From: a virus
Lineage: Duplodnaviria > Caudoviricetes
Length of the DNA: 64,000 nt
Virus record (IMG/VR): IMGVR_UViG_2519899680_000008
Location: 1-64,000 of that record
Direction: 5' to 3' (one strand)
Position 1 is the stretch's first letter; every line of letters starts with the position of its first letter. A program made the position numbers and the translations under genes. Positions 2,874 through 62,332 of this stretch are shown here, piece by piece. The notes below the pieces were generated by a model. The model was not told the origin of the DNA. It did no database searches and was given only the letters and a program-made list of their open reading frames with translations.

Positions 2874-5051
2874 TCAGGATTGAATGAATAAAAGGGAATT
2901 CTTGTAGGTCTGCAAAGTGTTGCAGCCGTTATAGTCGCTGTAACGTATGACTGCCGTGAGAATGACGACCTTGTCCTTGAGCGACTGTACCTCGGCGCGG
3001 TGCTCCATGTACCAGTCATTCCAGCAGACGCATTCCGCCAGCCGGTTGTTCTGGGAAAGCGACAGCTTCGCAAACCGTCTGCTGCCGCCGGTCTCCCGGT
3101 CCTTATAGGTATGTTCCGACACGTCCACGACCGTTGCGCATACGGTTACCCTGCGCCCGTCGTTCTCGTCCTTGGACACCTCCTCCAACGAAAGGTAGGA
3201 AGCCTTTCCCTTGACTTTCTGCCGCGCGTCCGAACTGTCGAAAATCCTCCGGTAGTCGATGGAACCGATACCGGACACGGCTATCTGCTGCTGTGCCCAG
3301 AAGTAATGCCTGCCGCGCATCTCCCCGGGAAAGTCCTTCTCGGAAAGCGTAAACCCGAGCTCCCGTGCGGCACGTTCCAGCAGGGCGTACCTCTGGGTGA
3401 TTGCCCCGACTTTCTCTATCCTGTCGAAACAGCCTGCCAGGATCATGTTCCTCACGTGGCGTGCATTCACCGGCACCTTCACCGCCTCGTCCGGGTTGTC
3501 CGGGTCGTCCCAGTAGCGGTATTTCTTCAGCTTGTACCGGAAGACCCGGTGGATGAAATTCTCGATGCTGTCATAATCTCCGCCCCTTGTCCGCTCCGCG
3601 ACGATATGCTCCACGGTCTTCACACCGACCTGCCTGATACGGGTCAGCGACCAGAATATTTCACCGGCGGCATAGTCGGTGAAGAACTCCGCTCCGGAGC
3701 GGTTGATGTCCGGCGGGACGATCCGGGCCGCGGAACAGCGCTCCATCTCCGACATCAGGGGCGGTATTTCCCTGTCGTCCGCCCATTGCAGCGCCACCGT
3801 ATAGAACGCCGACGGGAAATTCGCCTTGAGCCATGCCCCGCAATAGGCGGTCAGCGCATACGCGGCGGCATGGCTGCGGTTGAACGAGTACTTGCCTGCA
3901 ACCTCAATCTTGTGCCATATCTCCTCGGCTTCGTACTCCGGACACCCGTTCCCGACCGCCCCGGAAATGAAATCCGCTTTGAGCGTGGCCATCAGGTCCG
4001 CCTTTTTCTTGCCTATCGCCTTGCGCAGCAGGTCGGTCTTCCCGAGATCAAAGCCCCCGAGCGTGTGTGCCACGGACATGAACTGCTCCTGGTAGACCAT
4101 GATGCCGAAGGTATTCCTCGTCGCTTCATGGCACCCGTAGTTATAGACCGGGGCTATCTCGCCACGACGGAAGCGAATATAGTTATCCGTCGCCCCGATA
4201 TCCAGCGTGGCGGGGCGGTAAAGGGCGTTGACGGCTATCAGGTCCTCGATATTCTCCGGCTGCACGTCCTGTATGAAACGGGTAATGCCGGGAGACGAGA
4301 ACTGGAAAACGTTCTGCGTGTTGCCCTCGGAGAGCAGACGGTAGGTCTTTTCATCCTCCAGTTTATCCCGCGTGATACATTCGATGGAAAGCCTCTCCCC
4401 GAAATGCTCGTTGGCCAAGGAGATGACCGCGCTGAGTTTGGCGAGTTCCTTGGTCGCGAGCACGTCCTCCTTGAGCAGCCCGATCTCGTCCACTGAATAG
4501 CCGTCGAACTCCGAGACCAACGCGCCGTCCGTCTTGCGGATGGGCAGGTAGTCGAAACATTCCGTCGGCACGCCGTCCCGTGTCTCGGGAGTGACGATGA
4601 TGGCGGAGGCATGGACGGATGCCGACCTGGGCTGTCCCAAAAGCACCCGGACCTCCTCGATGACTTCGGGATACGCCTGTATGAAGTCCCGGAGTCTGCG
4701 GTTTGCCGATGCTGCCATGAAAAGCCCGGTCCAGTCCGTCCCGTCCTCTATCATGGCAGTGACATAGTTCACGGTGGAATGGGGTACGCGGTGTACGCGG
4801 GCGACATCCTTCAGCGCGGCTTTCAGCTTCATCGTGGTGAATGTCCCGGCGGAGAAGACCCGCTGTCGCCCGCCCACGTTGTAGCGTTCCTCCAGATAGT
4901 CCTTGATTTCCTGCCTCCGGTCCGAGGCGTAATCGACATCTATGTCCGGAAGCGATGCATGCCCGCCTTCCGCCAGCCCCCGGTCCACGAAGGAGTCCAT
5001 CACCTTCAGGGGCCGGTCCGTAGTCTTTATCTTTACATGTGTAACTTTCAT
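2874..5051 (-). CDS. dnaE: DNA polymerase III alpha, C-terminal fragment, preceded by a 32-aa intein-C-like leader
   Basis: PDIDVDY catalytic motif, HASAIIV, GLLKEDVL, VFQFSS, YQEQFM, YSFNRSHAAAY, HhH and OB-fold regions. Confidence 0.93.
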   Translation of the reverse strand: MKVTHVKIKTTDRPLKVMDSFVDRGLAEGGHASLPDIDVDYASDRRQEIKDYLEERYNVGGRQRVFSAGTFTTMKLKAALKDVARVHRVPHSTVNYVTAMIEDGTDWTGLFMAASANRRLRDFIQAYPEVIEEVRVLLGQPRSASVHASAIIVTPETRDGVPTECFDYLPIRKTDGALVSEFDGYSVDEIGLLKEDVLATKELAKLSAVISLANEHFGERLSIECITRDKLEDEKTYRLLSEGNTQNVFQFSSPGITRFIQDVQPENIEDLIAVNALYRPATLDIGATDNYIRFRRGEIAPVYNYGCHEATRNTFGIMVYQEQFMSVAHTLGGFDLGKTDLLRKAIGKKKADLMATLKADFISGAVGNGCPEYEAEEIWHKIEVAGKYSFNRSHAAAYALTAYCGAWLKANFPSAFYTVALQWADDREIPPLMSEMERCSAARIVPPDINRSGAEFFTDYAAGEIFWSLTRIRQVGVKTVEHIVAERTRGGDYDSIENFIHRVFRYKLKKYRYWDDPDNPDEAVKVPVNARHVRNMILAGCFDRIEKVGAITQRYALLERAARELGFTLSEKDFPGEMRGRHYFWAQQQIAVSGIGSIDYRRIFDSSDARQKVKGKASYLSLEEVSKDENDGRRVTVCATVVDVSEHTYKDRETGGSRRFAKLSLSQNNRLAECVCWNDWYMEHRAEVQSLKDKVVILTAVIRYSDYNGCNTLQTYKNSLLFIQS

Positions 5052-5593: not shown

Positions 5594-6367
5594 CTATAAT
5601 ACATGGTTGGTTATCCTTTCTCCTGCCGTGCGGAAGATTTCGCGGTCTATCTCTATCCCTATGAAGCGCCGTCCCGTATTCCTGCACGCGATGGCGGTAC
5701 TCCCGCTGCCCATGGCGAAGTCGAGGACGAGGTCCCCTTCATCGGTGTATGTCCTTATCAGGTATTCCAGCAGGGCCACGGGTTTCTGCGTGGCGTGCAG
5801 GCAGGAAAGCTGCTTGTCCGTCTTGAATTTCAGCACGCTGCGCGGATAGCGTTCCGTGGAGATATAGTCCCGGTACTTGTCATGTTTCCGGTAGATTTCC
5901 CCCGCGTCGCATTTGTGCTGGTGTACGGCAAGGATGACCTTCCGCTTGTGCCCGTCGGTCTTGATCGGGTTGTATTTGGGAAGCCTGTCATAGAAGACGA
6001 GGATGTCCTCGTGCGCCTTCATCGGCATGCGTTTCGCGTTCAGGAATCCGGTCGCCTGCGTCTTCTCCCAGACCCAGGCGTAGCGCAGCCTGCCGAGGTT
6101 TGAGCCTCCCAGGACGCTGGTAAACGGCTGCTGGCAGAAAAGCAGCACGGGTGTCTTCTGTCCGGAAACCTCCCGGACGGCCTTCCACATGCGGGGGATA
6201 TCTATCACGGAATCCCACCGGCAGTGCGTCGTCCCGTAAGGCGGGTCGGACAGTACCATGTCGGCAATGATGCCGCTGGCGGCAAGCCGGGGCAGTACCT
6301 CCAGGGCATCTCCCCGGTAAAGGTCGCATCCCTCATAGGGACGCAGGTGTTCGCAGTTCTGATTCAT
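5594..6367 (-). CDS. DNA N6-adenine/N4-cytosine methyltransferase (beta class)
   Basis: DPPY catalytic motif precedes HATQKP and LDFAMGSGST SAM-binding motif; ATG 6367 preferred over TTG 6376. Confidence 0.92.
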   Translation of the reverse strand: MNQNCEHLRPYEGCDLYRGDALEVLPRLAASGIIADMVLSDPPYGTTHCRWDSVIDIPRMWKAVREVSGQKTPVLLFCQQPFTSVLGGSNLGRLRYAWVWEKTQATGFLNAKRMPMKAHEDILVFYDRLPKYNPIKTDGHKRKVILAVHQHKCDAGEIYRKHDKYRDYISTERYPRSVLKFKTDKQLSCLHATQKPVALLEYLIRTYTDEGDLVLDFAMGSGSTAIACRNTGRRFIGIEIDREIFRTAGERITNHVL

Positions 6368-8090
6368 CGGCTTCAAGTTCCTTTAAGTTCCACAGGCAAT
6401 CTCGGCGGTCGAAAAGGATTTCATCGCCACAAATCAATTCATCGGCATATATTGTCTTTTCCGCATCCTTGCGGATTATCCGCAGCCGGGCATCCGGACT
6501 GATGCGGTAGGTCTTGTCCCCGGACTTTATCTCTACATAGCGTTCCCCTTTTTCAAGCAGGAGATCCGGAGCCAGTACCGTCAGCTCGTCTTTCCAGCTC
6601 AGCCCGCAGCGTTCCGGCACAAGGAAACGCGAGAAGATAAGCCCGTATTTCAGCGGGTCGATGGAGGTGATACCGAGCAGGTATGACACCAGGGAGCCTC
6701 CCGCGGAGCCGCGCCCGATGCCGGTGGCAATGCCCCGGCGCCTTGCTTCCCGCACCATGTCCCACTGCACGAGGAAATAGTCCACGTTGTCCGTCGATTC
6801 GATGATATAGACCTCCTCGTCCAGCCGTTCCCCATAGCGTTCCCTTTCCTGTTCCGGGACTTTCTCACGCATTCCCTCATCGAGCAGGCGGAGGAACATC
6901 GTCCGTCGGTTCCCGTACCGTTCCCGTTCCCCGTCCCGCATCCTGTATTCGGGCATGAACATGCGTCCCGTCTCGAAGGCGGCTGTCGCTTTTTCCGCGA
7001 TCTCGACCGTCGGGCGGCACATGCGCCTGAACAGCCTGTCGAAATCCCACTTGTCGGAAAACAGGGGGCGTAACGTCTCGTAATGCTCGTCCACGCTCTT
7101 GTAGTACTGGTCATCGCTCTGCTCGTGCGCCGCCCCCGAAGCTATCTTGTTCAGGACGGTCTTCGAGAAGGCATCGTCCTTGTCCGGGTAATGGCAGTCC
7201 GCAATGAGAATGGGAGCCACGGGAAAAGAATCCGTCCGGTCGTCATGGCTTTCGAAATAGTACCGGAGGGCTTCGAGGTTTTCCCGGTCTATACGGTCGG
7301 CCTTGTACTCGCAGGCATCCACCTGGTAATAGACCGCCTCGAAACCCTGCCGCAGCCGTGCGACCTGCCGGGGATGGGAGAGCATCCAGTAGGAGGAACG
7401 GGTGGAGAAGATCAACACGCATCCGGCGGCATACGCCAGCAGCTGCTCATATCGGAGCGTCCTGTCCTCCGAGCCCACCATGACGGCACGCTGTATGCGG
7501 AGCAGGTTGCGGAGACCGTCATTGCCGAGGGCATAGACTTTCAACCCGACTTTCCCGTCCGGGTGTGCCATGTCGAGGGAATACCCGAACACGTGCTTCA
7601 GTCCCGCCTTGGCGCATTCCTTCTGGAAGTTGAGCGTGGCGGCCATCGTGTTGCGGTCGCAGATACCGATGGCCGTGTGTCCCAGCCACCGGGCCTTGCG
7701 GCACCACTCTTCCAGAGCCCCGGAAGCGTTCAGCAGCTCGTACGGGGTATGGATGCCGAGGTTTACGAAAGGGATGTCGTGCACGGGAGGTTTCGGACGT
7801 CCGATATGTTTCAGGATATTGAACCTGAAATCCTCCCGCAGGTCGTAGTAGTACCAGTTCTTTCCGAAGGGGAATGCCACATGGCGGATACCTTCTTCCA
7901 GCAGTACCTCCGGGGTTTCCATCAGGTTGAACACGGGCCTGCCGCCTTCATTCCTGAAAACGGAGTCCACGCCGGAGAGGTCGGCCAGGAACAGCCGTCC
8001 GAATTCCGGGATGTCCACTACCTCCGTGTCCACGGGCATATATGAAATGGACTGGCTGTCGAGCCAGGCCAGCAGTTCGTTCATCATCAT
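6333..8090 (-). CDS. dnaE: DNA polymerase III alpha, N-terminal fragment (PHP + part of palm), ending in a 91-aa intein-N-like tail
   Basis: PHP motifs, DYFLVQWD, GRGSAGGSLVSYLLGIT, IDPLKYGLIFSRFLVPER, then CGLSW... Confidence 0.92.
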   Translation of the reverse strand: MMMNELLAWLDSQSISYMPVDTEVVDIPEFGRLFLADLSGVDSVFRNEGGRPVFNLMETPEVLLEEGIRHVAFPFGKNWYYYDLREDFRFNILKHIGRPKPPVHDIPFVNLGIHTPYELLNASGALEEWCRKARWLGHTAIGICDRNTMAATLNFQKECAKAGLKHVFGYSLDMAHPDGKVGLKVYALGNDGLRNLLRIQRAVMVGSEDRTLRYEQLLAYAAGCVLIFSTRSSYWMLSHPRQVARLRQGFEAVYYQVDACEYKADRIDRENLEALRYYFESHDDRTDSFPVAPILIADCHYPDKDDAFSKTVLNKIASGAAHEQSDDQYYKSVDEHYETLRPLFSDKWDFDRLFRRMCRPTVEIAEKATAAFETGRMFMPEYRMRDGERERYGNRRTMFLRLLDEGMREKVPEQERERYGERLDEEVYIIESTDNVDYFLVQWDMVREARRRGIATGIGRGSAGGSLVSYLLGITSIDPLKYGLIFSRFLVPERCGLSWKDELTVLAPDLLLEKGERYVEIKSGDKTYRISPDARLRIIRKDAEKTIYADELICGDEILFDRRDCLWNLKELEADESELRTPASL

Positions 8091-9848: not shown

Positions 9849-9898
9849 TAGAACCTGCCAAGCCTCTTAACAATGCTCAAATCGGCGGGTCGTTTTTT
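9849..9898 (+). ncRNA. Small structured RNA, possibly abiF-like motif
   Basis: ACCTGCC/GGCGGGT stem enclosing AAGCCTCTTAACAATGCTCAAATC, then a U-tract, directly after a promoter; family call from recollection only. Confidence 0.35.
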
Positions 9899-9914: not shown

Positions 9915-10244
9915 ATGTTCATGGTCAGTGAAGCCCATCCTTTTTATTTGAGGAACGGACGGCTCTCAAGAATAATGATGAATGCGGAACTTGTGAAAGC
10001 AGACCAGACAAGAATTATCGTCCCCACTGTTTTCAGGGAAGACTACATACTGTCATTGCGCAAGTTGACCCGTCAGAAAGACCCGTCTGCATATATTGTA
10101 ATGACCAAATTACAACATTTCAGTGACAACCTGTACGGAACCGATTTCAAGGAACTGATGGAATACCTTGCAGCCTGCAATGCCTATGATGAGCCTTCGC
10201 AGGCAAAACTGGAAATCATAGACAGGACTATTAATAAATTATAA
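9915..10244 (+). pseudogene. Truncated Fic-domain protein with degenerate motif
   Basis: HPFYLRNGRLSRIMMN versus Fic consensus HPFxDGNGRxxR; N-terminal part of the domain missing. Confidence 0.7.
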
Positions 10245-57424: not shown

Positions 57425-58219
57425 TTATTTCAGCAATTTGTCAATCAGCTTTTCCCTTACTACCCCGTAAGCCTCATGCGGGTCAAACGTGATATCCGGA
57501 CGCAGGAGCAGCTGGGAATCCGAAAGGAAATCCGGGTCCTGCATCTTTTCCTCCATGTTGAGGATGAACTGCTTATGGGTAGGAGGTTGCTGCACCACGA
57601 ACCCGATGTAACGTTTGTAGCAACGAATGACATCATCCGTATTCACCCCCGTTTTTGTCAGAGCCAGGTACAGGTCGAGAAGGTCACGACCTTTCTTTCG
57701 CTGGTACAATGCCCGCAGTTTCGTACCGAGCAGTTCGGCAAGATTGTAGGTGGTGATTTCACACGAGCCGGAAAACCACTGGTTTTCCAACGAAAACGGC
57801 ATTTTGACAAATCCCATCTCGGTAAAGTGTTCAAAACAGTTGATTTCAATCTTCAAACGCAGTTGTATCGGAGGAGTTCCTTCAGATTGGATACGGCAAA
57901 GCATCGTGTTGTTGTAACGTTTCTGTTTCGTCACCCTGTCCGGAATGAAATCCAGTACTTTACCAAGACGGAACATGATAGGCTTGATGGGACCTGCCGT
58001 AATCTGCACGAGGTCAATGTCCTCGCTGTATCTGACCTGCGGAAGCATGTGTAGCTTATGAAGGGCTGTTCCTCCCCGGAAAGCCAGTTGGGATGCAAGA
58101 AAATCGTCTCCGAAAATGGAGACCAGGGCACGGGATATTATCAGGTCCTGCTCAATGTATGACACATCAGTCCATGGGGCGTGTTCACGCCATTGTTGTA
58201 TTGCGGATTTTACTACCAT
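57425..58219 (-). CDS. abiEii: AbiEii-family nucleotidyltransferase toxin
   Basis: IEQDL, AFRGGTALHK, RYSEDIDL, KLRALYQRKKGRDLLD. Confidence 0.9.
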   Translation of the reverse strand: MVVKSAIQQWREHAPWTDVSYIEQDLIISRALVSIFGDDFLASQLAFRGGTALHKLHMLPQVRYSEDIDLVQITAGPIKPIMFRLGKVLDFIPDRVTKQKRYNNTMLCRIQSEGTPPIQLRLKIEINCFEHFTEMGFVKMPFSLENQWFSGSCEITTYNLAELLGTKLRALYQRKKGRDLLDLYLALTKTGVNTDDVIRCYKRYIGFVVQQPPTHKQFILNMEEKMQDPDFLSDSQLLLRPDITFDPHEAYGVVREKLIDKLLK

Positions 58220-59019
58220 AATTCGTCCGGTTCAATGTCTTGGTTTATTATAAGTTTCCATTTTGAATTCTTCCTTGCCCCGTCTTGAGGGCGGTCTGTT
58301 GACAAGGGGCGGTATTTCAGGTTTTTGTAATATGGTTCCAGCATCATGCTGATTTCATCGGCGGCAGACTGTTCTCCCAGTACGTTTTCCAATATGTAAC
58401 CCAACCGTTGAAGTGTGGAAAAGGTGGTAATATCTGTAAGTTCTTTCCCGGATTTCATAAAATCAGTGTTCTCAACCAGTTCGGCGATTACAGTCGCCGC
58501 GGCGGAAAGACCTCCGACCTGTTGGCTGTATTGCACAAGATCAACGGCAGTAAGTTCCGGACAAGAATACAGAAGCGTACCCGTATCAGTGTGGGTCTGG
58601 AGCAATAGGTTTTGAGGGATTTCTTTCCGGTAGCTCCAGAACAGATGCCTGTTGCTGTTTTTTGAAACAGGAATTCTTGGCAGAACTGTGGTGACTGAAA
58701 GCCTTTGCGGGCGCTGGTGCGCCGCTCCGTTGAGTACGCCGGCACTCAGAAGGCTGATGTAATAGGGTCTGCCCAAATGTGTCATCAGCTGGTCTACATA
58801 ATTATACGGAGGGACGATACCCCTGTCCCTGAACTGAATGGATACCGTTGTATAAAATCCCTTGTGTACAGCCTGGATACGCTTCTGCTTGCCTAACCGG
58901 TACAGTTCATTAGACACTACCTGTGCGGATAGTGCAGGCAGGGCTTTCCTGATATCATTGTATGAGAATGTCGGAAAACCTGTCATCTCTCGTTTGTCAA
59001 TCCAATCTGATATGGTCAT
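58213..59019 (-). CDS. abiEi: AbiEi-family antitoxin (type IV TA)
   Basis: YYISLLSAGVLNGAAHQRPQ, SCPELTAVDL, QRLGYILE; upstream of abiEii; ATG 59019 chosen because TATATTTG overlaps the TTG start. Confidence 0.85.
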   Translation of the reverse strand: MTISDWIDKREMTGFPTFSYNDIRKALPALSAQVVSNELYRLGKQKRIQAVHKGFYTTVSIQFRDRGIVPPYNYVDQLMTHLGRPYYISLLSAGVLNGAAHQRPQRLSVTTVLPRIPVSKNSNRHLFWSYRKEIPQNLLLQTHTDTGTLLYSCPELTAVDLVQYSQQVGGLSAAATVIAELVENTDFMKSGKELTDITTFSTLQRLGYILENVLGEQSAADEISMMLEPYYKNLKYRPLSTDRPQDGARKNSKWKLIINQDIEPDELW

Positions 59020-59086
59020 TTCTCGGATATTTTGTTGCAAATATAATCTTTTTTTTATTATGTCGATTATATTTTGTCCGAGGATA

Positions 59087-59878
59087 TTACTCCTTACCCC
59101 CGATTACCCCATGCTTCATTTTCAGGATGGCCATGAAGCATTCACGCACCTGCTGGATGTCGCGCAACGAGGTAAAATAATTACCGGCCTCCCTGCGTTT
59201 CCGGTCCCGCTTCTTGTAGGTGTCCTGTACCTGGCAGATATTGAAATGCTCGTCCAGGTAATAATAGTCCCGGCCTTTGGGCGCCCGCATTTCAAGTGTC
59301 TCCAGCTGCCGGAGCCGTCCGTTCCACACCAGCCCCTCCTTCTTGAGGGCGGCAGAGAAACAGTTCCTGTCACAGGAACCTATCGGGGCCACCTGGAAAT
59401 CATCGATATCCCCGGCCGTTTCATTCAGGGAATAGCGTGGCGGTTCATTTTCCCTCATCATGCAGTACATGATAATCTTTCCTTTCCTGATTTCGCGGAA
59501 CGCCCCCAGTATGACATTCTCCCCGAGGATACTGAGCTTCACCAGCTGTCCGTCGTGCGGGATATAGGATGCCTCCGTCAGCTCGCATTTGCGCCTGTTC
59601 CAGAAAAGGTCTTTACTGTTAAGAAGACGCTGGAAGGCTGTTTTTTCTTTCAGGGTGGCTGGTCTGCAGTCGGCGGCAGGCATGACAACCTCCTCCCGGT
59701 ACAGGTTGCCGTCGACAGTGCATCGGACCGTTATCGCCAGGCAGTCTTTTTCCGTATGATCTACAAGTCCCGTCTCCAATGTCACCATATTGAACACGGC
59801 CGTTCCTCTCTGTATTTCTGACCCCGTCAGACCCCTTCCGGAATCTGTATCGGCATCCGTTCCTTTACGCGTCTCCAT
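59087..59878 (-). CDS. Hypothetical protein (263 aa)
   Basis: ATG ORF with host-type TATATTTG at 59949-59942. Confidence 0.7.
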   Translation of the reverse strand: METRKGTDADTDSGRGLTGSEIQRGTAVFNMVTLETGLVDHTEKDCLAITVRCTVDGNLYREEVVMPAADCRPATLKEKTAFQRLLNSKDLFWNRRKCELTEASYIPHDGQLVKLSILGENVILGAFREIRKGKIIMYCMMRENEPPRYSLNETAGDIDDFQVAPIGSCDRNCFSAALKKEGLVWNGRLRQLETLEMRAPKGRDYYYLDEHFNICQVQDTYKKRDRKRREAGNYFTSLRDIQQVRECFMAILKMKHGVIGGKE

Positions 59879-60911
59879 TTTTTTCGTTCCTCTCTGTTAC
59901 CCATGGTGTTTCAATATTGCATATACGGGGATAACAATTGGCAAATATACAATTTATTCGGCACAGTCCGAGGCGGAAATCCGATAAAAACCCCCGCTTT
60001 GATATAAAAAGACAAAAACTGAACAAATAAGTCGTTTCCCGCGGGAATACCCTTGCCCTGTATATTCCTCGCGGGTTACGGAAGTCCTTGTACCGGCAAT
60101 CATATCTCTCCGCTCGCCCATATATATTATTGCCATGCAATGTATTGCAAAGGTAACGTGTGCCGATGCTCCTTCGTGCAGGGACAGAATATGCAAGTAT
60201 ATTTTTCATGCAAAACATCTGCCATGTACAACCCTGTTTTTACAAGGGCCTCCGGAAAGCCTTCTTCCCTGTATATACCGGGAGAATGTAAGCGTATCTT
60301 TTCATGGAACTGTCATACCGTAACGGCGCGGGTGAAACGACGACCGGTCTCCTGAACTTCAAGAGCTGGACCCGTCCCTTTCATGTATATTTCACGGCAT
60401 CCGCTTACAATCCGTAACCTAACCGGCATTTTCGCCGGTTTTCAAAAACCGGACTTGGGAAAAATGCCCGGGGAGAGATACCGAATCCGCACCTGGACAG
60501 ATACCCTCCCCAATCTTTTTATTTTTATTACTATATTGATATTCAATAATTTAATAGGTTTACTTTTGTATAAAGTAAGCCTAAAACGGTTTTTTCTCTC
60601 TTTGTTACTTACAATTTGAAAGCAAATAAATTATTTCCTTTGTTTTCACATGTTTTGTATTTAACTATATTGTTTATAATCAATCGTTTATGTGTAAAAA
60701 TCCCTTCCTTACACATTTGAAATCGGGTATTTTTCGATTTTTGCAAAGAAAAAATTTTTTCATGTTTTTATAAATAGTTGATATTCAATTATTTATAACT
60801 GTTTCTCGCGCATGTGCGTTCCATGTTTGGGAAAAGTGAATTTTTAAGGCAGTCTAAAATTTTTTTTTGCAAAAAGTTTTGGAAATTGGAAAAACGGTTT
60901 TATCATAGTCA

Positions 60912-61623
60912 TGTACTCGAAAGCCAAAACAAACGGCAAACAAGTACGGAAAAAACGAATAAAAAAAACAATAACTAAAAAACAGATTTAAGAAACAGAC
61001 AAACCAGTCCGCCGAGAGCGAGAAACAAAAAGCCTTTTTTGTGGGAAACCTATTTTTGAGGCTTGGAAAATCAAAAATTGCCTGTTCGCTTTGGAGCGAT
61101 TAAATAGGGTGTTAAATAACCACACCGAGCAGGACTACAAACCAATGTAGCAAGTTGGAACGGTCTAAAAACGTGTTTTTAGTCCGCATACGCAAAGCAC
61201 GCTAAATTTTGGGAGTGCGAGAGTCGTATGGAAAAAGGACGTGTAAAAATAATGCCATAATTGCGCCCATGTGCGCTCGGAATAAAATGCACGATAGCGG
61301 TAAAAACTATCCGCATAGAGGACGCTGGTAAATGTATATGCCAATGCTATACCCAATACCCAGCTCGGTGGTAACACCTAAATGCCTCACCTTACAGTTA
61401 GCTGCCGGATCGGAAAAGATCCGGGACGTGCCAGAGAAGCGTCTTGCCGAAATTGGAGTAAAGCAGCGCAGTGCCACGACACGAATGTTGCGTGAGTAAG
61501 CAAATACACGATATGCCGAAAGTGCGCTCATTTGGATAGCTCTGCTATGGGGTACGTTTAAGTAAGGTGCGACAAAGTTACGAAAAATTTTGCCGTGCAG
61601 GGTGAAATGCACGGCAATTTTTT
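60912..61623 (+). ncRNA. Candidate large structured non-coding RNA
   Basis: No credible ORF; more than 10 local hairpins nested in two long-range helices (61108-61130/61363-61378 and 61388-61395/61562-61569); ends approximate. Confidence 0.55.
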
Positions 61624-61696
61624 GGGCACTGCTGAAAAAACGGTTTCAGCCGTTCCGCCTTTGGCTGAACGTGGGGTTCGAGTCCCCGAGTGCCCG
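61624..61696 (+). ncRNA. tRNA-like element (non-canonical)
   Basis: 7-bp acceptor GGGCACT/AGTGCCC, T-arm TGGGG-TTCGAGT-CCCCG, aberrant D arm, 7-bp/11-nt anticodon arm, no encoded CCA. Confidence 0.65.
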
Positions 61697-61738
61697 CAAT
61701 GCGTGATTTTGCGCAGAGTTTCTAAAATTTATATCATT

Positions 61739-62332
61739 ATGGCAACATCTAAATTGAACAAGGAACAGTATGCAAACCTCTCTTCGTTTGCTGGTATCAT
61801 GTTGGTTTACAACTCGACAAACCGCGACGGTGAAACGGTGCAGACTGCCCAACACTTTTTCGGCAAGGACTTCGAGCCTGCCGACAAAACGGACGACGAA
61901 ATCTTCCGTGTGGTGAAAAACATGGTCGCAACGATGTGGCATACCATTGCAGAGGAAAAGAAACTGCGGCAAGATGCCGACGGTATCCGCTCGAAATTCC
62001 GTGCCACCACTCCGGCAGAAATCATCATCTGCGACAAGAACCGTAACCGCATCAAGCACTACGACCTGACGGACAGCGTGTGGGCACGTATCGGACTTGT
62101 GCCGACCAAAGTGGATCTCGAGAAGTCAAACCGGGACTTTGCCAAGACTATCCATGCGGCGGCAAAGGCTATCCGTAACGCCATGAATTTTGCCCCGAAC
62201 CTCTCCAGCCTTGAAAAAGCCGGAAAAGCTGACAAGAAAAACGGCGGCAAAGGAACAAAAAATGCAGAAGATGCGGCAACCGCGACCGCTGAAACGATAA
62301 CCGCAACCGAAACGGAAAAAGAAGCCGCATAA
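61739..62332 (+). CDS. Hypothetical protein (197 aa, MATSKLNKEQ...)
   Basis: ATG after an AT-rich Bacteroidetes-type leader; followed by terminators. Confidence 0.75.
   Translation: MATSKLNKEQYANLSSFAGIMLVYNSTNRDGETVQTAQHFFGKDFEPADKTDDEIFRVVKNMVATMWHTIAEEKKLRQDADGIRSKFRATTPAEIIICDKNRNRIKHYDLTDSVWARIGLVPTKVDLEKSNRDFAKTIHAAAKAIRNAMNFAPNLSSLEKAGKADKKNGGKGTKNAEDAATATAETITATETEKEAA

Follow-up and report, generated by a model that had tools for sequence, protein, structure and literature searches.

The stretch examined here, positions 60912-61623 of a 64,000-nt piece of phage DNA (the window), contains a Bacteroidales-2 RNA gene on the minus strand, an assignment of identity and strand that we regard as almost certain. 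When the whole window is compared with Rfam 15 by cmscan, two matches rise above the curated thresholds, one of which is to the Bacteroidales-2 RNA family (RF02943) at 61023-61431 on the minus strand, with a score of 427.8 bits against a gathering score of 204.3 (E 7e-126). The match covers the whole model (positions 1-392 of 392) without truncation. Bacteroidales-2 is an already catalogued family of structured RNAs, and the copy in the window is a full-length member of it. The main result is thus a correction: an earlier, sequence-only reading had described an ornate plus-strand RNA, either of a new large phage class or a divergent GOLLD or ROOL, while the candidate belongs to a family present in Rfam since a 2017 survey of 224 motifs, that of Weinberg et al. 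2017, of which RF02943 is probably one. The Rfam search that this reading had proposed as a check is what finds the known family. Its broader claim, a large, conserved and structured phage non-coding RNA beside a tRNA-like element, is borne out by the Rfam match, by covariation and by the surrounding phage genes. A permissive rescan of 60300-62000 (both strands, E<=1, permissive filters) adds only two further matches, both at chance level, and neither GOLLD (RF01998) nor ROOL (RF03087) matches this interval on either strand even at these settings, which leaves no support for a divergent form of either.

When compared to the RF02943 model, the window copy has the same helices, strand logic and host order, and it scores twice the gathering score. 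It differs in two respects: an insert follows the first hairpin, 13 nt long in the cmscan alignment or 16 nt in the MAFFT alignment and shared by 10 of 22 lineages including that of the window, and an extra covarying 5' hairpin (P0, with the short helix P0b) lies outside the model. The main text of that survey (PMC5737381) does not discuss Bacteroidales-2, and the literature searched yielded no relevant paper that names the family or gives its function.

The evidence that the fold is more than a chance arrangement comes from covariation rather than from folding energy. We compared 22 non-redundant homologues that differ by >3% and are 62-91% identical to the window, using an alignment from 61475 to 61005 (A1) onto which the Rfam structure was projected via the cmscan alignment, with two 5' helices added. 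Standard pairs occupy 93.8% of the cells. Changes on both sides are found at 47 of 78 pairs compared with 23.9 in shuffles, none of 500 shuffles being as high, and sliding the 3' partners by 1-3 columns lowers pairing to 33-46%. At least one pair with a double change occurs in 13 of the 15 Rfam helices. The folding of single sequences, by comparison, is only weakly better than that of shuffled controls (z = -1.44 on the minus strand over 61010-61475; z = -2.61 on the plus strand over 60912-61623), and folding energy alone was set aside as a discriminator, as it separates neither strands nor models. In the Rfam structure, Bacteroidales-2 consists largely of successive hairpins together with a single enclosing helix, and its annotation includes neither pseudoknots nor a network of multistem junctions. 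Loop-loop contacts between CCAAU and AUUGG are possible; the letters are invariant, and hence no covariation signal could arise from them. The folded RNA amounts to about 450 nt (61469-61023), running from P0 through the Rfam core to a 3' hairpin, and this replaces the extent of ~700 nt (712 nt) proposed earlier. Conservation of the core columns is 85-98%, whereas for the 197-aa protein encoded next to the RNA, identity drops to ~51% across this set of relatives; judged from these alignments, selection on the RNA is stronger than on the neighbouring protein genes.

The strand is set by four lines of evidence. Read on the minus strand, one G.U pair is conserved in 21 of 22 sequences, and the well-aligned helices contain 38 G.U cells compared with 12 A.C cells. 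The same strand carries an exact host-type promoter box in all 22 lineages and a conserved U-rich run after the 3' hairpin. The Rfam match, the G.U pairs and the promoter box thus all contradict the plus-strand orientation that had been assumed.

With regard to individual helices, five of the hairpins first seen by eye (in plus-strand letters, CTACA/TGTAG, CTAAAAAC/GTTTTTAG, CATACG/CGTATG, CCGGATC/GATCCGG and GACG/CGTC) coincide with covarying helices of the family. The homologue comparison is divided in its outcome: the family helices covary, and neither of the two helices thought to close large domains has any compensatory change. The first of these (61108-61130 with 61363-61378) relies on the 16-nt insertion found in 10 of 22 lineages; it has only one-sided, wobble-compatible changes and zero double changes, and it competes with two covarying Rfam helices. 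The second (61388-61395 with 61562-61569), together with ATAGC/GCTAT and CACG/CGTG, is paired in 68.7% of cells compared with 68.3% after shuffling, with a covariation score under the shuffled mean. Of the remaining hairpins, GATAG/CTATC loses to a competing, covarying GCGG/CCGC hairpin, while TGGTA/TGCCA and GCTGC/GCAGC have zero compensatory changes in the 22 homologues.

An addition to the public Rfam model is the P0 hairpin (61439-61469, minus strand), which lies upstream of the modelled part and consists of a covarying stem and an invariant 12-nt loop, UACUCCAAUUUC, at 61460-61449. The loop is identical to the letter in the 22 representative lineages with the exception of two, and it is exact in all 27 contigs that cover the site among the 31 of our second motif scan. 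In the stem, by contrast with the loop, we observe 25 distinct flank pairs in 104 loci, including at least 8 fully compensated versions; at least 5 contiguous pairs are retained in 56% versus 11.6% in a control in which each 5' flank is paired with the shuffled 3' flank of another lineage. P0b (61426-61442, minus strand), a short ACG/CGU helix that is extendable to 4 bp, joins P0 to the first Rfam positions. It is paired in 100% of cells in the 22 homologues, with double changes in 2 of 3 pairs, and it has G.U and U.G in independent lineages, a pattern compatible with the minus strand only. P0 and P0b extend the Rfam model, and our literature search gave no earlier account of P0. Searches for targets of the P0 loop reveal no excess of sites, either in the window (7 sites for the 12-nt complement at <=2 mismatches, against 4.2 expected) or in its own genome (17/12 sites at <=1 mismatch, against 14/10 in the control), and the only exact sites for the complement in the genome are the two RNA genes it carries. 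A partial second copy of the loop (60890-60882, minus strand) is unconserved in relatives and was taken as chance.

Upstream of the folded RNA lies an exact match to the Bacteroides -7 promoter box (TAACTTTG; 61573-61580, minus strand). The consensus of this box in Bacteroides promoters is TAnnTTTG, and an exact TAnnTTTG on the RNA strand is what all 22 lineages share. The box, too, is missing from the Rfam model, and our literature search gave no earlier account of it. Transcription would then begin near 61567-61563. Two arrangements occur: the distance from the box down to the P0 loop is 113-120 nt in the type to which the window belongs and 47-60 nt in the second type. A lineage-variable leader (61470-61567, minus strand), to which most of the supposed second domain corresponds, fills the interval from the predicted start to P0; in the other lineage group the leader sequence is unrelated and BLAST homology begins at 61461. 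If transcription starts just after the -7 box, the folded RNA would be preceded by ~100 nt of variable leader in the window's lineage.

At the other end, the 3' hairpin and a following U-rich run (61023-61064, minus strand; stem 61064-61060 with 61034-61030) have double changes at 5 of 5 stem pairs and 96.4% of cells paired. The two together are probably a terminator, although the stem of 5-6 bp and the loop of 26 nt are atypical for an intrinsic one. Conserved sequence extends 110 nt beyond the hairpin, into a tail (60912-61022) outside the fold, in which the minus strand is T-rich and the plus strand A/C-rich. We find islands of conserved sequence in this tail and no conserved fold (consensus folding energy -4.9 kcal/mol, with an unfavourable covariation term), so that the left 110 nt of the region first delimited are a conserved tail and not part of the structure. 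Just beyond, a sigma-70-type scan scores 9 of 12 for a promoter-like plus-strand site (TTTG, 19 nt, TATCATAG; 60878-60908). The site is conserved in most lineages, in which the second box is TATAATAG, and it mismatches the host -7 consensus at positions 5-7. Being promoter-like by sequence, it could give rise to a transcript antisense to the large RNA.

On the opposite side of the promoter box, we resolve a set of plus-strand elements. The first is a 10-bp hairpin with an invariant loop, GGGUGAAA, and flanking A and T runs (61590-61617). In the plus-strand alignment A2, it has double changes at 10 of 10 pairs and 16 G.U cells compared with 1 A.C cell, which argues that it folds as plus-strand RNA, and in a sequence scan it is terminator-like on both strands. 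This is the hairpin that had been named as the terminal one: it is real and covarying, but it cannot serve as the terminator of the large RNA, as it lies upstream of that RNA's promoter box and its wobbles are those of the plus strand. Six bases after it begins a tRNA-like element (61624-61695, plus strand), which combines a 7-bp acceptor stem and a canonical T arm with D and anticodon arms that are aberrant. Covariation is seen in the T stem, and the wobble pairs of the acceptor stem are compatible with the plus strand. ARAGORN calls no tRNA in the window; the orthologous element is called as tRNA-Cys(GCA) in two relatives (L016 and L019) and as an odd tRNA in two others (L017 and L056), always on the strand opposite the large RNA. 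A mascRNA-type match to the same interval on the plus strand in the permissive Rfam scan is weak (E 0.47). Across phages, the element ranges from a tRNA-Cys(GCA) that the tRNA finder recognises to variants whose anticodon loops are 11 nt long or aberrant in other ways. The acceptor and T arms are preserved in all of them, suggesting that a tRNA gene has been adapted to a non-decoding use. By its sequence, the window's element is a degenerate, tRNA-Cys-like relative; it is 155 nt from the P0 hairpin and 193 nt from the Rfam core. A 6-bp hairpin (61700-61715, plus strand) separates it from the first plus-strand gene and covaries as well, with double changes at two pairs and U.G and G.U pairs compatible with the plus strand. 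No conserved host -7 box occurs on the plus strand in the interval from the RNA to the hairpin at 61590-61617.

The gene that follows (61739-62332, plus strand) encodes 197 aa, adjoins the RNA and is transcribed away from it. By tblastn, it is found in 57 of the 65 first loci; of the 31 loci from the second scan, 27 have it and the remaining four end short of the site. Wherever a locus extends far enough, the gene is present along with the RNA, at 51-92% amino acid identity. The protein has no Pfam or PHROG family, its Atlas matches are unnamed phage clusters only, and its AlphaFold model (pLDDT 68) has no fold match in the PDB at E<=0.001.

The carrier is a large tailed phage or prophage of gut Bacteroidales, and the window contains genes for a tape measure, tail sheath, portal, SbcC-like nuclease and family A DNA polymerase. 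In IMG/VR, two motif scans recover ~91 contigs with Bacteroidales-2 (60, then 31 further), all of which were confirmed as homologous by BLAST, with 71-94% identity to the window over the aligned parts. A GenBank phage from human faeces (MT835494.1, 99.8 kb) matches the window at 91.8% identity over 60900-61720 and reaches a family score of 431.9 bits. A motif search of GTDB species genomes gave 63 hits, of which 16 are true, including those in a Bacteroides ovatus MAG, Butyricimonas muris, Rikenellaceae, Alistipes and Paludibacteraceae. Short contigs assigned to Firmicutes MAGs probably represent phage DNA that was binned wrongly. The RNA is present in 4 of 151 species genomes of the window's genus and in none of 150 other genomes in an order-wide sample, which has about one genome per genus and is too sparse for a phage-borne gene; this absence fits a patchy, mobile gene. 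The cultured Bacteroides phage BS-TP1, the portal of which is 62% identical, has no match to Bacteroidales-2, and thus, the RNA is dispensable for such phages. The genome from which the window derives has a second, divergent copy (L002; G000:C1:224615-225051, 346 bits, 437 nt) with extra insertions and the same gene order as at the window locus, indicating that the strain carries two related prophages. Bacteroidales-2 is carried by one lineage of large gut Bacteroidales phages and is present as prophages in isolates of cultivable gut genera.

Gene order is identical in all ~110 homologues with enough flanking DNA. This fixed order is absent from the Rfam model, and our literature search gave no earlier account of it. 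A single order in all carriers amounts to a single evolutionary observation, and context cannot on this basis tell whether the RNA acts in trans or in cis. Of the genes downstream on the RNA strand, the AbiE pair (57425-59040) and a 117-aa ORF are not common to other carriers, which argues against the RNA being the leader of a fixed gene, although a 263-aa gene (59087-59878), also downstream on the RNA strand, is found in 31 loci at 33-52% identity; its product has no Pfam or PHROG family, and its Atlas matches are again limited to unnamed phage clusters. The AbiE pair itself, on the minus strand, consists of an AbiEi antitoxin and an AbiEii nucleotidyltransferase toxin (Pfam E 3.5e-21 and 2e-31) and, being unshared by other carriers, looks like a cargo (moron) insertion.

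ROOL and GOLLD are large structured RNAs of phages and prophages that often lie beside tRNA genes (PMC5737381; bioRxiv 10.1101/2024.12.08.627333). The RNA described here likewise occurs in a phage next to a tRNA-derived element, but the likeness to ROOL (RF03087) and GOLLD (RF01998) is one of context only and not of sequence or proven mechanism. Unlike those two, which match neither its sequence nor its structure, it is ~450 nt long, compared with an average of 581 nt for ROOL and >800 nt for GOLLD. A further trait of ROOL and GOLLD is self-assembly into RNA-only multimers (cages). A second comparison can be made with the P4 CI RNA and the P1/P7 c4 RNAs, which are phage immunity RNAs of 70-80 nt that are processed by RNase P and act through short complementary boxes. 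These may offer an analogy in that a tRNA-like or hairpin element stands in an early-operon leader beside a regulatory RNA gene; the analogy would apply more to the plus-strand leader than to the large RNA, and no short complementary boxes were found here when the alignments were inspected by eye. The value of the present locus lies in an unmodelled 5' hairpin with an invariant loop, a strict phage module and a tRNA-derived neighbour, which together provide a third, smaller system besides ROOL and GOLLD for probing the roles of such phage RNAs.

The explanation that we find highly probable overall is a stand-alone minus-strand Bacteroidales-2 RNA gene in a large Bacteroidales phage or prophage. 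Host RNA polymerase would start the RNA at the -7 box (61580-61573), and the RNA would then act in trans as a folded particle and not as the leader of a neighbouring gene, with the invariant loops and A-rich internal loops as putative contact surfaces, either in a scaffold or with a protein or RNA partner. A separate plus-strand unit, made up of the tRNA-like element and the hairpins before and after it (61590-61617 and 61700-61715), would head a divergent operon that begins with the conserved 197-aa gene. That the large RNA forms its own transcription unit seems likely from the sequence signals, while for a trans-acting folded RNA we consider the case evenly balanced. Family membership, fold, strand, phage carriage and gene order are demonstrated by the analysis; the promoter, the ends of the RNA and its action in trans are predictions. 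The stand-alone, trans-acting reading is favoured because the core is better conserved than the protein gene, because there is a promoter box of its own and a terminal hairpin, because the fold is richer than a leader or antisense RNA needs, and because the AbiE pair and 117-aa ORF are unshared. A bolder version is tentative and, in our estimate, rather unlikely: the folded RNA with P0, the degenerate tRNA-Cys element with its leader hairpin, and the 197-aa protein might form a three-part phage module, a Bacteroidales counterpart of ROOL and GOLLD in the form of a large folded particle. Were this so, the RNA would work during early infection or lysogeny, possibly through self-assembly or with the 197-aa protein bound to it.

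The main rival to a stand-alone trans-acting RNA is a control module of the sense/antisense or cis-acting kind. Here the minus-strand RNA would overlap a plus-strand transcript or have a control region in common with it, and the two would jointly set expression of the divergent early operon, the RNA taking the place of the repressor gene in a lambda-type switch and the hairpin and tRNA-like leader providing processing or termination signals. The geometry is suggestive: the RNA promoter is within ~60 nt of the start of the plus-strand unit, the -7 box stands back-to-back with the plus-strand elements in one lineage group, and the RNA, tRNA-like element and 197-aa gene are never separated. The hairpin at 61590-61617 has an invariant loop and hence is more than a plain terminator, and with no conserved -7 box on the plus strand, the transcript may start far upstream and be antisense to the RNA. 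However, a fold of ~450 nt that comprises 17 helices and numerous invariant loops far exceeds what antisense or immunity RNAs need, complementarity between the RNA and the plus-strand leader is <=5 nt (from alignments judged by eye only), and there is no repressor-type evidence; we therefore regard this reading as possible but unlikely. A DNA-level element, such as a replication origin or a packaging or regulatory region in which the hairpins matter as DNA, is most improbable. The 3' end of the RNA does face a conserved AT-rich region with three 18-nt repeats (60536, 60673 and 60778) and a conserved GC-rich box (60805-60824), and in a variant of this idea transcription through the hairpins would serve only to open that region with its three palindromic sites, but compensatory changes and strand-specific G.U pairs point to an RNA fold as the target of selection, the RNA has its own promoter box and terminal hairpin, and Rfam curators have classed the family as an RNA gene.

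The original proposal, a single plus-strand RNA of ~700 nt (60912-61623) that starts from the site at 60878-60908, ends at the hairpin at 61590-61617 and folds into two closed domains, as a new class or a divergent GOLLD or ROOL, retains very little probability. It can draw on the energy of the plus-strand fold (MFE z = -2.61), which contains the long-range helices, on the conservation of the promoter-like site and on a terminal hairpin with a U-tract that does fold on the plus strand. Against it, the Rfam match is on the minus strand only, the conserved G.U pairs become C.A mismatches on the plus strand, the two closing helices and four more hairpins lack compensatory change, the left 110 nt have no conserved fold, and GOLLD and ROOL are unmatched. 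As a folded RNA, this reading is largely refuted, while a plus-strand antisense transcript may exist. A protein-coding gene on the minus strand, for which one could point to stop-free frames of 57-149 codons across homologues and to a relative (L042) that is open in one frame across the full 448 nt, is rejected with virtually no remaining doubt by the pattern of substitutions and indels. Variability by codon position is flat (0.134, 0.149 and 0.128) with no 3-base periodicity, indels among homologues are mostly not multiples of 3 (1, 2, 8 and 16 nt are common), the phase of the open frames varies between lineages, and RNA helices explain the covariation. The earlier description of the stretch as ORF-poor accordingly holds, as no conserved ORF is present.

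Several further features of the window merit description. The AT-rich gap downstream of the RNA contains three copies of an 18-nt repeat (60536-60553, 60673-60690 and 60778-60795) at spacings of 137 and 105 nt, with an 11-nt palindrome, TTGATATTCAA, as core. The copy at 60778 and the adjoining GC-rich box (60805-60824) are conserved in most lineages, and the repeats and box are candidates for operators or for an origin. Two minus-strand ORFs, 2874-5051 and 6333-8090, encode the family A DNA polymerase and correspond to the C-terminal (441-1018) and N-terminal (39-440) halves of one PHROG profile, respectively; ~1.3 kb with two smaller ORFs separates them, consistent with either a split gene or an inserted mobile element. 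Finally, the second Rfam match in the window is an abiF RNA motif (RF03085) at 9854-9890 on the plus strand, with a score of 60.2 bits against a cut-off of 37. It lies just upstream of a 109-aa ORF (9915-10244), and from this arrangement the phage seems to carry an AbiF-type abortive-infection module.
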